A stretch of DNA of 62,929 bases, counting the filler, from Alcyonidium flabelliforme (taxonomy: Eukaryota), in assembly GCA_026167845.1 (NCBI GenBank). It is 25 parts of 25 records of this genome, joined end to end, with 100 filler letters (N's around TTAATTAATTAA, not from the genome) between each part and the next. Parts side by side here need not be neighbours in the genome. Positions count along the whole stretch, not along the records: positions 32,049 to 34,438 come from JAOQFJ010000040.1; 24 more parts are not named here. One strand, 5' to 3'. This document shows positions 27,057 through 48,138 of this stretch, piece by piece. The translations under genes and the position numbers were made by a program. Each line of letters opens with the position of its first letter. The first letter of the stretch is position 1. The notes under the pieces are model-generated. The model was not told the origin of the DNA and made no database searches. It was given only the letters and a program-made list of their open reading frames with translations.

Positions 27057-28418
27057 AACAGGACATCTCACTCCGACCCGTTGCCTCAAGTATTGGGAGT
27101 GTTAGTTATGCGACAGCCAAATATTTGGCTGGCATACTGGGTCCTATGGTAGGACATACCCCCCATCACATTAAGAACACTGAAGACTTTGTAAATAAAA
27201 TCAGAGGATTGGAAGTGCGCCCTGGTATAACTATTGTGTCTTTTGATGTCAGTGCTTTTTTTTATACCTGTGGATGAAGCCATACGTGTCATTGATCTAA
27301 AATTGGAACAGGACCAATCATGGACTTCGGTCACCACTCTTGACAAAGATCAGATTCTTGAATTACTCAAGTTCTGTTTGAATACAACATACTTTGTGTA
27401 CAAAAACGTGTATTACAAACAACAACATGGTGCTGCAATGGGCTCTCCCATCAGTCCCATTGTAGCGAATTTCTACATGGAGAACTTTGAAGAGAAGGCC
27501 ATTGCCACAGCTATTAATCCACCATTGATATGGTATAGATATGTCGACGATACCTTTGTCAAGATCCATGAATATTACGTCGAGGACTTTTTGAATCACA
27601 TCAACAACATCGACCCTAGTATCAAATTCACTATAGAACATCCCAAGGACGGTCGTCTCCCGTTCCTGGACACATGTATTAACATCAGTGATGACGGTAG
27701 CACTACTGTAACTATGTATAGAAAACAAACGCACACAGATCAATATTTGAACTTCAATTCTAACCACCATCTACAACACAAACGATCTGTGGTTAGAACA
27801 TTATTACACCGAGCTGAGAAATTAGTCACCGAGGAGGAAGATAAACAACTAGAATTGGCACACGTCAGGGACTCCCTTAGGGACAATGAATATAAAGACT
27901 GGATGTTTAGGATTCCCCCTGTCAGGAATCCCAATGCCAACCAAGACCATACTGTGAGTGTCTCTCTACCATATGTTAGGGGACTATCTGAAAAACTCAC
28001 GAAGATTTTCAGAACTCATGGAGTTGGCATATATCATAAACCGGGTAACACTCTGAGACAGTTATTAGTTCACCCTAAGGACAAGACTGAGGATATTAAA
28101 AAGTGTGGTGTAATATATAAAATTGAATGTCCGGAATGCAAAGACGTTTACATCGGTGAAACTGCACGTAATCTAGGCACCAGAATCAAAGAACATCAAA
28201 AGAAAAACATTCCCAATCCTACAGCAGTTGCAGATCATTGTGCTACAACTTTACATAACATCAGTTCAGACAATGTCAGTGTTATTGCTAAGGAGGACAA
28301 ATTCTGGAGCAGGAAAATACGAGAGGCAGTTGAAATTCTGTGGGAAGATCCCAACCTAAACAGAGATCATGGTTACGAACTTCCCGCCATCTACAAACAG
28401 CTGACTCCACGTCAGTAG
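27057..28418 (+). mobile_element. Penelope-like retroelement ORF (RT plus GIY-YIG), frameshifted at the poly-T at 27256-27263
   Basis: SFDV in one frame; AMGSP, RYVDD, LPFLD and VIY...YIGET in the next. Confidence 0.88.
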
Positions 28419-32048: not shown

Positions 32049-32316
32049 TGTAGATAGCCTAGTGCCTGAAATTTTAGGGGGCGATTTTTCTGATAATGAG
32101 GTGAGCTTAGGGCGCATACTTGCAGGCAAGCAAGAAATGCAAATTGTGCTTAAAGTGGTGGCGGTTCGTGAAAACTTTATTTTTGACGAATTTGAAGATT
32201 TAACCGAGTTGGGGCAGGCAAGGGAAAAACAAGACTGTGATCACGATTGGGAAAACATGGGCGGTCACTTTCAATGCACTTACGCCGATTGCCAAGCGAT
32301 AAGTAAGGGGGCTTAA
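32049..32316 (+). CDS. Phage hypothetical protein, 5' truncated (C-terminal CDHDW...CxxxxC)
   Basis: ORF ends 1 nt before the next start. Confidence 0.6.
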
Positions 32317-32317
32317 A

Positions 32318-32917
32318 ATGGAATTAATAAACGATAGCCGATTAACACCCACAATGGACGTAATGCGCAGTGGCAGCACCATGCTATTTAGAAAGGTTAA
32401 AACCCGCGAATCTATAACTAAAGCTAATGCCGATGTAGTATTAAAACACTCCACTAATAAAGCAATGTACGCCAAGCTTATTAAAAGTAGTTGGTATTGG
32501 GTAAATGGTTGTAGTCATTGCGACCCTACTCAGTCGCCGTATGTTGTATGCGATGAACATGACAAATGTATAACATGCAAGCAACCACGCAGCGCACAAA
32601 CTCAAGCTGTTTGGGGTTGCCTTAATAACGCCTGGCGTTGCGCTCCTTGCCAAACAAAGCTAGACAATGAAGAAAAACAAATCGCATTAAAGCGCGTAGC
32701 TAAAGCCGTTGAGAATAATGGCGGTTATGATAAGTGGGAGTATCGACTGCAAGATAATATAAAATGCCCTCATTGCGCCACTGAATATGAACCAGATGAT
32801 GTACCTGAAGGTGAGCAAAGCTGCGATACTTGCGGGGGTTCTTATAACGTAGAGCCTGAGCATTCTATTAGTTATACAACAACGGTTATTGGTGAAAGGC
32901 TTTTGCCTGATGAATAA
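32318..32917 (+). CDS. Phage hypothetical protein with multiple CxxC zinc-binding motifs
   Basis: CSHC, CITC, CAPC, CPHC, CDTC; AAGGGG RBS. Confidence 0.75.
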   Translation: MELINDSRLTPTMDVMRSGSTMLFRKVKTRESITKANADVVLKHSTNKAMYAKLIKSSWYWVNGCSHCDPTQSPYVVCDEHDKCITCKQPRSAQTQAVWGCLNNAWRCAPCQTKLDNEEKQIALKRVAKAVENNGGYDKWEYRLQDNIKCPHCATEYEPDDVPEGEQSCDTCGGSYNVEPEHSISYTTTVIGERLLPDE

Positions 32918-33063
32918 TTCACATGTTATAAAATGGTGCCGTTATAATTGTTGGCGGGCCATGCAAGCAAACCGCCAATTAGGCCAATTGCATTGGGCCA
33001 CTCAAGAACGGATAGAGCGCAAAAACAATAATAAATAGGTAATGAGTGATTTATTACAGGCAC

Positions 33064-33127
33064 AAAAAAACCCGATTGGAAGTCGGGTTTTTTTGTTTTT
33101 ACACATAAGCGCACAAATCTTAGACGC
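33064..33127 (-). ncRNA. Putative antitoxin sRNA, about 63 nt
   Basis: TTGACG-17-TATATT promoter; intrinsic terminator at 33064-33094; 5' 20 nt complementary to 33340-33359. Confidence 0.72.
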
Positions 33128-33131
33128 TCCG

Positions 33132-33160
33132 AATATAACGCTTATTGACGGCTTCGTCAA
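33132..33160 (-). promoter_or_regulatory. Near-consensus sigma70 promoter of the sRNA
   Basis: -35 TTGACG (33155-33160), 17-nt spacer, -10 TATATT (33132-33137). Confidence 0.75.
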
Positions 33161-33437
33161 TGTACTGCGCAACAATATAAAGTTTGTAATTGGGTTGTTT
33201 ATTGGTTATAAAGTGAGGGTCTAAGGCGCTTGCTACGTTGCGTTTGAAGTGTTTAACACTTGAATAGAGAGTGAAATGCTCAGCAAATTTAATAGCTTGG
33301 TTGTTGGTGTGGAAACTAACGGCGCGCCCAACTGGGTGCAAGCGCGCAAATCTTAGACGATTGGCAGTGAAGGTGATCAGGTTTACCTATGGCGCATCCC
33401 TTTTGCTTGTTACCCCTATTCCAAAAGGGGGCACGTG

Positions 33438-33530
33438 ATGTTAGAGCTATGTATTTTAGTTGTAACCTTGCTTGTATCGGTAGTGCGGTTAATCGCACTG
33501 CTTTTGCAGTTCAAACGCAAAGGCAAGTAA
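33438..33530 (+). CDS. 30-aa hydrophobic peptide MLELCILVVTLLVSVVRLIALLLQFKRKGK, putative DinQ-like type I toxin
   Basis: AAGGGGG SD paired with upstream CCCTTTTG; single TM helix with a basic tail; own terminator. Confidence 0.75.
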   Translation: MLELCILVVTLLVSVVRLIALLLQFKRKGK

Positions 33531-33545
33531 GTATCTACGTTAAAT

Positions 33546-33575
33546 AAGGGGTCGCTAATGCGACCCCTTTTTTTT
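33546..33575 (+). terminator. Intrinsic terminator after the small peptide gene
   Basis: AAGGGGTCGC-TAAT-GCGACCCCTT plus T run. Confidence 0.85.
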
Positions 33576-33963
33576 ATGCGTAATGATTAAGCCCTTTTTG
33601 CAATTCGTCGCTGCATTCAGGGAATGCTTTAATATTTCGCTTTATGTCTGTTTTACTCATCCAAACCCAATAGCTTTCGCCCTCATCATCTACAATGTCA
33701 AAACGTGCGGCCTCTTTACCGCGCGCTTTACGTACTAAATTAAACTCACTAAATGTTATTTGGGTGGTTAATTTATTTTTTCGGTATAACACCCACAAAT
33801 CTTCACATCCTTTGTTAAACACTTCGACGGCTTTGGGTGTTGTTAATTTGGCGCTGAGTATTTCGCGGTGGGTTTCGGTTACGGCCACGTCGTTTAATAT
33901 TGCTATGCCGCTTACACGTTCGTACCCTTCGGCTTTCATTTTTGCGTCAATGGTTGGGTTCAT
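33574..33963 (-). CDS. Phage hypothetical protein, 129 aa
   Basis: ATGA overlap with the upstream gene; GAGG RBS. Confidence 0.7.
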   Translation of the reverse strand: MNPTIDAKMKAEGYERVSGIAILNDVAVTETHREILSAKLTTPKAVEVFNKGCEDLWVLYRKNKLTTQITFSEFNLVRKARGKEAARFDIVDDEGESYWVWMSKTDIKRNIKAFPECSDELQKGLNHYA

Positions 33964-34211
33964 GGTTTTGCCTCGCGATTAATCCAGTTATTGTAAACGC
34001 CTAAACACCACGAATACGTATAAAGCAATGTTAGTAAAAACATTCCGTATTGCTGTGATTGCAATGTTGAAAACCACCAAAAAGGCTGGCTAACTAAGCC
34101 AAATAGGCATGCAAACTTTTTTAATCTATCGTTATTTTGTTGTGATAAATAAACAGCTATACCGCCAGTTACAGCTATTAAAATTTGAGAAAGAACCTCA
34201 AACATAAACAC
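33960..34211 (-). CDS. Small phage membrane protein (about 3 TM, GLVSQPFW)
   Basis: AAGGAG RBS; hydrophobic segments. Confidence 0.7.
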   Translation of the reverse strand: MFMFEVLSQILIAVTGGIAVYLSQQNNDRLKKFACLFGLVSQPFWWFSTLQSQQYGMFLLTLLYTYSWCLGVYNNWINREAKP

Positions 34212-34214
34212 TCC

Positions 34215-34438
34215 TTAATCGTTTGTTTTAGGGCTTATGCGTTCTATGATCACGTTACCCAGTTCGCTGTTAAATTCAATATCGTTTTGTTGGTTATGAG
34301 CTAGCATGATCAGTGTGCGGGCTAATACGCCCGCCACTTTTTCTAAACCATGCGCTTTAATGTCGGCCGCTATGGCGTCAGGCAATTGCATGGTTATCCT
34401 TACTTTACTGGGCTTAGGTCGGGGCAAACTAGCGGTAT
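34215..34438 (-). CDS. Phage hypothetical protein, probably 5' truncated
   Basis: ORF in the operon, ending 3 nt before the next gene. Confidence 0.55.
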
Positions 34439-39397: not shown

Positions 39398-39497
39398 NNN
39401 NNNNNNNNNNNNNNNNNNNNNNNNNNNNNNNNNNNNNNNNNTTAATTAATTAANNNNNNNNNNNNNNNNNNNNNNNNNNNNNNNNNNNNNNNNNNNN

Positions 39498-41791
39498 CAG
39501 GGTCGGCCCACCGTCCCGTTCTTCGATCCGCGCACATTGAGCGCACGGGTCGGATCCAAGGTCGGACCCGCGGTCGGCCACGCGGCGGCTCATGCCATCC
39601 GCATTCCCATGCTTGACGCCGGGTCGGTGTTCGATATCGTAATCAAACTCGCCCAAGATTTCGAGCCATCGGGCTATCTGCCCGGAGGGTTCCTTCCGTC
39701 GGCATAGCCACAACAATGATGCATGGTCGGTGCGTAGGAGGAACTCTCGACCGTACAAGTACGGTTTGAATTGGCGGACTGCCTTGACGACCGCCAGTAA
39801 TTCGCGGCGGGTGACGCAGTAGTTGCGTTCTGAGCTAGACAATGTCTTGCTAAAGTAGGCGATGACTCTCTCCCTTCCAGCTTGGACTTGGGAGAGCACG
39901 GCCCCGACTCCATCATTGCTGGCATCCGTATCCAGTATGTACTTCAAGGCTGGGTCTGGATACCCCAAGATGGGAGCCGTAACCAAAAGGTCGCGTAACG
40001 ACATAAAAGCGCTGCGTTCGCTCGGACCGAAACTGCAGGTAACTCCTTTACCCTTCATCGTGGTCAGCGGTTTGGCACGTGTGGCGAAGTCAGGGATGTA
40101 CTGGTGGTAGTACCCCACCGTTCCCAGAAAAGCCCGCAGCTCAGTCAAGTTCCGCGGCTCAGGCCACTCCTTGACGGCCGCGATCTTCTCTGGGTCGGTG
40201 GAAACTCCGTCTTCACTCACGATGTGCCCCAAGTATTTTACTCGATGTTGGAGTAAATCGCACTTGGACGGTTTGAGTTTCAAACCGGCGCTCCTCAGCC
40301 TTCGGAAAACTTCCTCCAGGCGTTCGAGGTGCGAGTCAAAGTCGGGCGCGATCACGATGACATCGTCCAGGTACAGCAATACGGAATGCCAATGCAATCC
40401 TTGCAGCACCTGTTCCATAAGCCTCTGGAAGGTGGCCGGCGCGGAGGTCAGCCCGAAGGGTAGCACCTTCCACTTCCAGAGTCCGTCTCGTGTTACGAAG
40501 GCCGACTTCTCGCTTGCCTCCTCACTGAGGGGCACCTGCCAATACCCGGCCGTGAGGTCGAGCGTACTGAAGTACCGACTCCCTGATAGGGCGTCAAGGC
40601 TTTCATCAATACGAGGCAATGGGTAGGCATCTTGTATCGTAACGGCATTTAACTGCCGATAGTCAACGCAAAACCGCCACTTCCCATCCTTTTTACGGAC
40701 GAGCACAACCGGCGAGCTCCAAGCTCCTCCTGCCGGTTCGACCAAACGACGTTCGATCAGGTCCGCCACCTGCCGGCGGACTTCGGCCTCCTTCTCCGGG
40801 CCCAATCGGTGTGCTGGTACCCTTACGGGACGCGCGTTAGGCACTGTGGGGATGCAGTGGGTCGCGAGCGAAGTGCGACCCACGTCCATGTCATCCTTAC
40901 TGAAGACATCCGCATACCGCCCCAACAACTGTCGTAACAGCTGCCTCTCCCTGTCGTTCTTACAGGTGCTACGCGCGGCCTCGTACATACTTCCCAGGTG
41001 CGTAGGGATATGTACCTCCCTTCCATCCATCGATCCGATCTGGCGGACATCCGGGTCTCCCGCAGTCTGAGGCGCGCCGCCTACGTCCTGCTCCTCGACC
41101 CCATGGTAGACTCCCACTACCTGTCCCGCGTCAATGACCAATGGCTCCCCGCTGGGGTTCCAACAACGGACCCAAACACCTCGGTCCGTACGCAGCTGAT
41201 TCAGGCTAGCAGCGACCCAAGGGCCGCCCGACACGCCTTCAACTACACCAAGGGGGGTGACCCCCTCGACTCTCGTTCGACAGAGCAAGAGAACTTCCTT
41301 TCCAGGAAGGATCGTGGTTTTCTTATTGGACACTACCCCGCAGACCATTACTCGACCGTAACGATCTACACACGGAATCTCTTTTCCGTGCAGCCGGACG
41401 ACCGGGCGTCCGAACTCGACCACGCACTTGTGGTCGGCTAGGAACGGCATTCCTAGTATCGCATCTTCGTTGATGCTGCTAACCACAAATACGACGGCCA
41501 TCACGCTTCCGGCGATACGCACAGGCAGCTCTACAACTCCATACAGAGGAAGCGGGGAACCATCGGCCATGGTCCCGCCATCCACCATAGGTTGCAGCAG
41601 CTCCTGAGATGCCGGAGGCAGACGATTGAAGACTTGCTTGCCTAGCAAGTTGGTGGTGGCCCCAGTGTCTACCAGGAACCTCGACTCCCTTCCCGCCACT
41701 CGTCCTGCCAAATAGTAACTAGGTCTATGAGGCTTGACGGGTAGCGAAACTGTCCTTGTAGCTTGGTACCCTGATAGGGTTCCGTCGAGTC
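39498..41791 (-). mobile_element. Ty3/Gypsy LTR retrotransposon pol (protease, RT, RNase H), truncated before the integrase
   Basis: LVDTGA, WSSPVVLV, FCVDYR, LPFGL, YLDD, DTDAS, RTDH, NADGMSR. Confidence 0.93.
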
Positions 41792-48065: not shown

Positions 48066-48138
48066 TGTCTGCTGCCGGACTCGAACCCGGCATCTTCAAA
48101 ACGTAAGTCTGACGCTCTACTAGCATAGCTAACCGGAC
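48066..48138 (-). pseudogene. tRNA-Val(TAC)-like pseudogene or SINE head
   Basis: Cloverleaf-like with CTTACGT loop and GGTTCGAGTCC; mismatched acceptor stem. Confidence 0.6.

Follow-up and report, generated by a model that had tools for sequence, protein, structure and literature searches.

The window, by which we mean the whole stretch of DNA analysed (62,929 nt), consists of 25 unrelated contigs of 2.1-2.8 kb between N spacers. One of these contigs carries, between two convergent genes, a cassette of about 550 bp in which a short hydrophobic reading frame on the plus strand is faced by a predicted small RNA gene on the minus strand. Neighbouring contigs hold other phage fragments, a tRNA (48066-48138) and ORFs that look retroelement-like by eye (27234-28418 and 39450-41711). 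The features of the cassette and its contig are as follows.

32049-34438: host contig of the cassette, 2390 nt
33020-33569, unstranded: entire accessory cassette, ~550 bp; its slot is swappable and flanked by convergent genes
33062-33096, unstranded: bidirectional intrinsic terminator (14-bp perfect inverted repeat with A/T runs, giving U-runs both ways), predicted 3' end of the sRNA
33063-33125, minus: predicted antitoxin sRNA, ~63 nt, whose 5' 19-20 nt form the seed for a duplex with the leader
33107-33126, minus: seed, first copy of the direct repeat, 19/20 match to 33340-33359
33132-33160, minus: candidate sRNA promoter TTGACG-17-TATATT, 10/12 consensus matches
33184-33212, plus: candidate toxin-mRNA promoter TTGTAA-17-TATAAA (33184-89; 33207-12), predicted +1 at 33219
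33219-33233, plus: mRNA 5' lock element, which can pair with the sRNA target in an interrupted helix of 15 bp
33276-33356, plus: possible 26-codon uORF ending inside the sRNA target, not significant and a lead only
33300-33323, plus: leader hairpin, with a compensatory change in L002
33340-33359, plus: sRNA target, direct-repeat copy, 98 nt before the start codon
33391-33437, plus: SD-sequestering structure (anti-SD 33398-33405 or CCCC 33413-16; SD 33425-33431)
33438-33530, plus: 30-aa hydrophobic peptide, predicted membrane toxin, with a polar stripe (3/10/17/24) and a basic tail
33546-33576, plus: intrinsic terminator of the toxin mRNA (hairpin 33546-33569 and T-run)

The predicted small RNA and the leader that it faces

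An earlier note on this DNA had described a 30-codon ORF in a region bounded by two intrinsic terminators, and both observations were borne out: the frame at 33438-33530 translates as claimed (best 19-residue hydropathy 2.9), and the terminators lie at 33062-33096 on the left and at 33546-33569, followed by a T-run, on the right. Conservation was assessed over four distinct variants of the cassette, that of the window included (90-97% identical, 62 variable columns; L044 was not counted separately, its alignment figures being equal to those of L002). Among these variants the ORF shows four synonymous and two replacement changes, namely V16A and a change at position 17, where the window alone has R and its three relatives have Q. 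In the toxin-mRNA terminator only a loop base has changed, plus one pair that becomes U:G.

The opposite-strand promoter proposed in the note, TTGACG-17-TATATT, is present at 33160-33132. Its match count alone is not above chance (two sites found vs 4.0 expected); all 12 hexamer bases are invariant in the four variants, and 4/17 spacer bases vary. The -35 hexamer also forms the right arm of a palindrome, TTGACG-N4-CGTCAA (33145-33160), which is imperfect in L001 and L002. This palindrome was rejected as a phage-wide operator, copies of TGAC-N6-GTCA numbering only 1, 2, 0, 1 and 0 in the related virus records G001-G005 respectively.

The direct repeat on which the proposed antisense pairing depends was likewise recovered, with 19/20 matches between 33107-33126 and 33340-33359 against 16/20 for the best of 300 shuffles. 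The seed duplex has a predicted energy of -35.0 kcal/mol (500 shuffled seeds, -17.7 +/- 2.5), and an sRNA:leader duplex of 19-20 bp is retained in 4/4 variants at -32.3 to -34.3 kcal/mol. One of 20 bases varies in the target and two of 20 in the seed, all of them G:U-compatible or at the edge of the duplex, and some of the substitutions in relatives turn G:U into G:C. Two-sided covariation was not seen among these variants, no seed change being matched by a target change; evidence of this kind is thin because there are only four variants, at 90-97% identity. The earlier note had held that homologues keeping neither the ORF nor the complementarity would count against it, and both are kept in all four. 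Promoter, terminator and the 19-20-bp duplex thus point to a small RNA gene adjacent to, and complementary with, the predicted toxin mRNA. The sRNA has a fold z of -4.9, mainly owing to its terminator.

For the mRNA itself, the note had reported no clear promoter, a statement that has to be withdrawn, as a candidate, TTGTAA-17-TATAAA, exists at 33184-33212. It was not listed by a consensus promoter scan; 10/12 of its hexamer bases are invariant in the four variants and 9/17 of its spacer bases are variable, the changes coming mostly from L002. LexA-type boxes, a trait of the SOS-regulated members dinQ and tisB, have the motif CTG-N10-CAG, and none occurs within 33020-33580, in agreement with the note.

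The heptamer GTCTAAG opens both predicted transcripts, in each case six bases after the -10, and, because they share it, the 5' end of the mRNA can pair with the sRNA target. This lock helix reaches -21.4 to -23.1 kcal/mol in 4/4 variants. About 11 bp of it are populated in full-length L001 and L048 RNA and in nascent window RNA, and 0 bp in full-length window RNA, in which a 5'-3' fold-back is favoured instead. The fold-back is the minimum-energy structure of the window RNA, and was discarded as the mechanism of the family since it weakens in the relatives without compensation (-28.8 kcal/mol in the window vs -21.4, -16.7 and -16.6 in three relatives). The mRNA region as a whole has a fold z of -5.4, and the leader hairpin of L002 carries a compensatory change from U-A to C-G (33304/33319) together with a G:U to G-C change (33306/33317).

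The SD and anti-SD were found where the note had placed them. Its account of how the SD is closed stands in part: pairing with 33398-33405 is possible, but this is not the sole partner, as the nearer CCCC at 33413-16 also fits. Whichever is used, the SD remained shut in every fold computed (unpaired probability 0.03-0.31; four variants in nine constructs each, target blocked or free), and no opening on 5' truncation was seen across that set. The 2:3 switch of dinQ is therefore not reproduced. With regard to activation by 5' processing or refolding, the lock helix is possible in 4/4 variants and truncation leaves the SD closed in silico. No tisB-type pseudoknot was evident on inspection. The features that mark the tisB/dinQ/shoB class, a long structured leader in which the SD is sequestered and a distal target duplicated as a direct repeat, are all found here.

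Contigs of 224-251 nt spanning 33217-33480 (the leader and the start of the ORF) and resembling the L002 variant were found in RNA libraries from four runs of one study; they show presence only, and neither strand, start nor level. The same libraries contain long contigs of a cassette-less relative. Contig ends near 33217-33243, and missing cover of the sRNA and both promoters in these runs, were accordingly discounted, the contigs carrying no strand or start and the cassette-less relative being co-present. Run X5 of a second RNA study did not cover the cassette.

An accessory slot and its probable phage-plasmid carriers

The nearest relatives of the cassette contig are five virus records, G001-G005, of 46-51 kb and 92-100% completeness. 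The cassette was carried by G001, G002 and a metagenome contig (L048) and was present in 2/5 of the near-complete relatives and lacking in 3/5; L052, L053 and L054 were likewise without it, and two of five metagenome matches to the cassette were true (L044 and L048). At the corresponding position of G003 (L049) the flanks are the same and about 26 nt, a single terminator, sit where the cassette would be, and in the contig of another relative, from an RNA library (run X3), 682 different letters lie between 33019 and 33570.

A 109-nt non-coding element (32911-33019) adjoins the slot on its left. It includes a GC hairpin and, at 32943-48, the hexamer TATAAT, and in all cases seen a terminator comes next. 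The element is 83-95% conserved in G002, G003 and G005, even where the cassette is lacking, and is missing from G001; it may be a phage small RNA in its own right.

G001 encodes terminase, portal, capsid and tail proteins, a CI-like repressor, a tyrosine recombinase and ParA, as well as an IncFII-type RepA (PF02387, E 9.5e-24) with 48% identity to that of a circular 36.9-kb Vibrio plasmid, which has the same set of phage genes, head and tail genes included. RepA and ParA were both encoded in 5/5 near-complete relatives. Virion genes (in G001) together with plasmid initiator and partition genes, the combination by which phage-plasmids are defined, are thus present in these relatives, and Pseudoalteromonas is the named source both of the proteins that cluster with the right-hand neighbour gene and of the G001 ParA. 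The carrier is most likely a Pseudoalteromonas phage-plasmid, since RepA and ParA occur in all five of these virus records; what is seen in the relatives is extended to the 2.4-kb contig of the window. An integrated prophage state is also possible, because the carriers encode a tyrosine recombinase.

Two observations on G001 stand apart from the cassette. The record encodes two initiator-like proteins, one matching Rep3_N and the other IncFII RepA (L056:4422-5303 and L056:6427-7329). At L056:8212-11413 a reverse transcriptase lies beside a tail-associated gene, and the family matched by the C-terminus of this gene is matched again at the beginning of the reverse transcriptase ORF; the arrangement looks like a diversity-generating retroelement.

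Searches for homologues

The earlier note had called the peptide DinQ-like. The resemblance stands, in size, in pattern and in an ungapped register with nine identities, although the peptide is without K4 and R20 of DinQ; membership does not. The NCBIfam DinQ/DqlB profiles (NF041472 and NF041473) did not match the peptide, and an HMM built from the fetched peptides gave it -0.7 to 3.7 bits (shuffle p 0.03-0.79), although as a control of sensitivity DinQ itself reached only E 0.018 on DqlB. Similarity z scores were 4.7-5.1 for DinQ, 5.8-6.2 for one DqlA-type peptide, 4.1-5.0 for TisB, which thus scores as well as DinQ, and 2-3 for ShoB; for scale, DinQ-TisB gives 4.9 and DinQ-DqlB 4.4. These reference peptides were picked after the note's suggestion of DinQ.

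Nucleic acid comparisons gave no closer link. Leader, 3' UTR and ORF DNA had insignificant segment z scores against dinQ/dql (0.03-1.3), and nhmmer found no hit of the cassette leader to these loci at E 10. Close nucleotide similarity of the 5' UTR is given as a trait of the DinQ/Dql family in an extract of PMC5066626, and the cassette shows none in these comparisons. Rfam scores for AgrB (24 bits, minus strand, vs a gathering score of 40) and OrzO-P (28.4 bits vs 60) were below threshold. The sRNA terminator is identical to that of an IncX agrB at 40/45 nt; this was set aside as evidence of homology, the 5' half being generic and occurring in five unrelated phage terminators.

Wider searches were similarly negative within their respective scopes. 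No named phage or plasmid was matched by blastn of the cassette, and plasmid records matched by DNA numbered 0 for the cassette and 3754 for dinQ. In tblastn against plasmids neither the peptide nor the DinQ control found any record; searches with such small peptides are nearly blind, because DinQ peptide finds no plasmid record though its DNA finds 3754. A peptide profile search over 1.84 billion representatives returned 0 hits, the peptides were absent from the sequence collection on exact look-up, and the best match in the ESM Atlas (0.84, to unnamed clusters) is a lead only. When viral sequences were scanned for the motifs of the SD hairpin, the leader and the terminator and for GGCAGTG, only the two known carriers were recovered. 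Six single seed matches in unrelated taxa, from a scan of genome contigs, were put down to chance, only one of them (L041) having recurred, at E 0.07.

An architecture detector (SD, short hydrophobic ORF and upstream direct repeat), with thresholds set when the cassette was already in view, was positive on 5/5 control loci (dinQ, shoB, tisB and two dqlB) and, over seven phage or phage-plasmid records (~320 kb), found only this cassette and one 14-nt chance repeat. In the 251 phylum-level and 401 order-level genomes sampled, neither DNA nor peptide-profile searches found a homologue; the weak matches obtained there failed the detector.

Proposed function and likeness to known type I loci

The cassette is very probably a type I toxin-antitoxin pair. 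By its layout, an mRNA of ~360 nt would start near 33219 and its own 5' end would pair with the target; in this locked form the mRNA would be stable, untranslated and out of reach of the sRNA. If the 5' end were lost or refolded, the target region would become free as a ribosome-loading (standby) site, which we infer because the SD stays folded in silico, as that of TisB does. The 63-nt sRNA would bind the active mRNA over 19-20 bp, block loading and invite cleavage by RNase III. In a daughter cell that had lost the plasmid prophage, the sRNA would decay and the stored mRNA be translated, and the peptide would then depolarise the inner membrane.

The earlier note had left the role between prophage maintenance and abortive defence; its toxin-antitoxin module is likely, and of the two roles maintenance is favoured, the carrier having RepA and ParA. 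With rather less assurance than the pair itself, maintenance of the plasmid state (addiction) of a Pseudoalteromonas phage-plasmid is probably the main role, and it is the most economical reading because of this carrier and the precedent of DqlB-agrB, which, according to excerpts of PMC12365149 and PMC12317039, kills plasmid-free cells and stabilises plasmids. Addiction is evidently dispensable for the phage group, because 3/5 relatives are without the cassette and NCBIfam, applied to 145 of the 197 small ORFs predicted in G001 and G003-G005, recognised no named toxin-antitoxin protein.

Alternatively, the same pair may serve mainly in defence, host shut-off by a superinfecting phage depleting the short-lived sRNA so that the peptide aborts the infection. 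Defence genes typically occupy accessory slots of the kind seen here, left empty or filled with other DNA in relatives, and type I systems may protect against lytic phages, as an extract of PMC11228461 has it. We consider a mainly defensive role unlikely, given the plasmid replicon of the carrier, the plasmid-stabilising function of the nearest architectural match, DqlB-agrB, and a cassette in which no trigger element was identified.

The closed SD raises the question of how ribosomes reach the start codon, and a hok/mok-style coupling would be one answer: the uORF and a second open frame, which stops at TGA 33436-38 and overlaps the toxin ATG (TGATG, 33436-33440), would carry ribosomes through the SD structure, the sRNA blocking this relay. 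The uORF is open in 4/4 variants with 4/6 changes synonymous, and its invariant ATG, with a purine-rich run upstream, stands in a variable stretch (9/24 columns). However, chance alone usually keeps a frame open when changes are so few, L002 has lost the GTG with which the long overlapping frame begins, both replacement changes of the uORF are accounted for by the leader hairpin, and no such relay was seen to be needed in the fetched dinQ/dql loci, all of which makes coupling improbable. We give similarly little credence to the broader proposal of a deeply diverged sister family of dinQ/dql/tisB/shoB on marine Pseudoalteromonas phage-plasmids, in which the promoter-repeat-terminator geometry would have been kept and the leader replaced, and in which neither RNA processing nor a pseudoknot standby site but a uORF relay, with its end in the antitoxin target, would switch the toxin on. 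An sRNA-regulated but non-toxic small membrane protein, such as a superinfection-exclusion or lysis-timing factor, is very improbable: no profile links the peptide to a toxin family and its similarity to DinQ and TisB could come from any amphipathic helix, but profile searches are insensitive, as the DinQ control illustrates, and both the double locking (SD sequestration and 5' lock, with antisense) and the geometry common to the cassette and proven toxin loci speak against it.

If the toxin-antitoxin reading is true, the apparently narrow distribution of divergent, trans-pairing type I systems would in part be an artefact of detection, and a search by architecture, for a repeat plus a short ORF, could bring up such cassettes that profiles miss. 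Extracts of the literature place TisB and ShoB in Enterobacteriaceae alone and never on a mobile element (PMC5367252), describe dql as confined to Enterobacteriaceae (PMC5066626) and remark on a gap in knowledge of toxin-antitoxin distribution (PMC12648545). Full-text searches of mostly open-access literature brought up no account of such a system from Pseudoalteromonas or from phage-plasmids. The 550-bp cassette is also a candidate stabiliser for Pseudoalteromonas vectors, and phages with and without it form a natural comparison pair.

The divergent layout of dinQ/agrB, tisB/istR-1 and shoB/ohsC, to which the earlier note had likened the locus, is supported by conservation, by retention of the duplex and by geometry relative to the fetched controls (dinQ, shoB, tisB and ten dql-matching plasmid loci). 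On this evidence the cassette appears to share the mode of action of dinQ/tisB, but it cannot be shown to belong to either family. The likeness to hok/sok, a post-segregational killing system with a cis-overlapping antitoxin, lies in the role proposed here and in the possible 5'-3' fold-back of the window variant; it differs in that the antitoxin of the cassette does not overlap in cis and the fold-back is weaker in three relatives. With shoB/ohsC of E. coli the cassette shares much of its spacing (in shoB/ohsC, target at -95, 24-nt repeat, spacing 248), whereas peptide similarity is weaker (z 2-3) and shoB is chromosomal. The tisB/istR-1 locus of E. coli has the divergent layout, a 23-nt repeat, a peptide with a basic C-terminus (z 4.1-5.0) and, in excerpts of PMC5066626, PMC11228461 and PMC13000454, an SD that remains closed and an upstream standby site required for loading; the cassette differs in having no LexA box, a target at -98 rather than -123 and no equivalent pseudoknot by inspection.

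The closest correspondence is with dqlB/agrB of IncX and IncL plasmids and with dinQ/agrB. In these loci, as in the cassette, a divergent sRNA has at its 5' end a direct-repeat copy of the target that lies in the leader ~95 nt before the start, the SD lies in a hairpin, and the peptide (27-31 aa, hydrophobic) is in register; in dinQ and in two plasmid dql loci (L059 and L065) the mRNA and the minus-strand sRNA start with a common word 6 nt after the -10, and a lock between 5' end and target is described for dinQ in part of PMC5066626. Two other plasmid dql loci are irregular: at L066:230-410 the agr terminator runs directly into the target, as if two repeats had collapsed, and at L068:300-440 the 5' leader is missing. 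Unlike dqlB and dinQ, the cassette has no profile hit, insignificant leader and 3' UTR homology, one sRNA, no LexA box, a peptide with a basic C-terminal tail and an SD predicted to stay closed after 5' truncation, and its host is a Pseudoalteromonas phage-plasmid, as inferred above, rather than Enterobacteriaceae. In common with dqlB/agrB, on the other hand, it most likely sits on a mobile low-copy replicon, and its dimensions (target at -98 in the window and -96 in G001, 20 nt, spacing 233 in both) are nearly those of the dqlB locus L059 (-95, 20 nt, 234).
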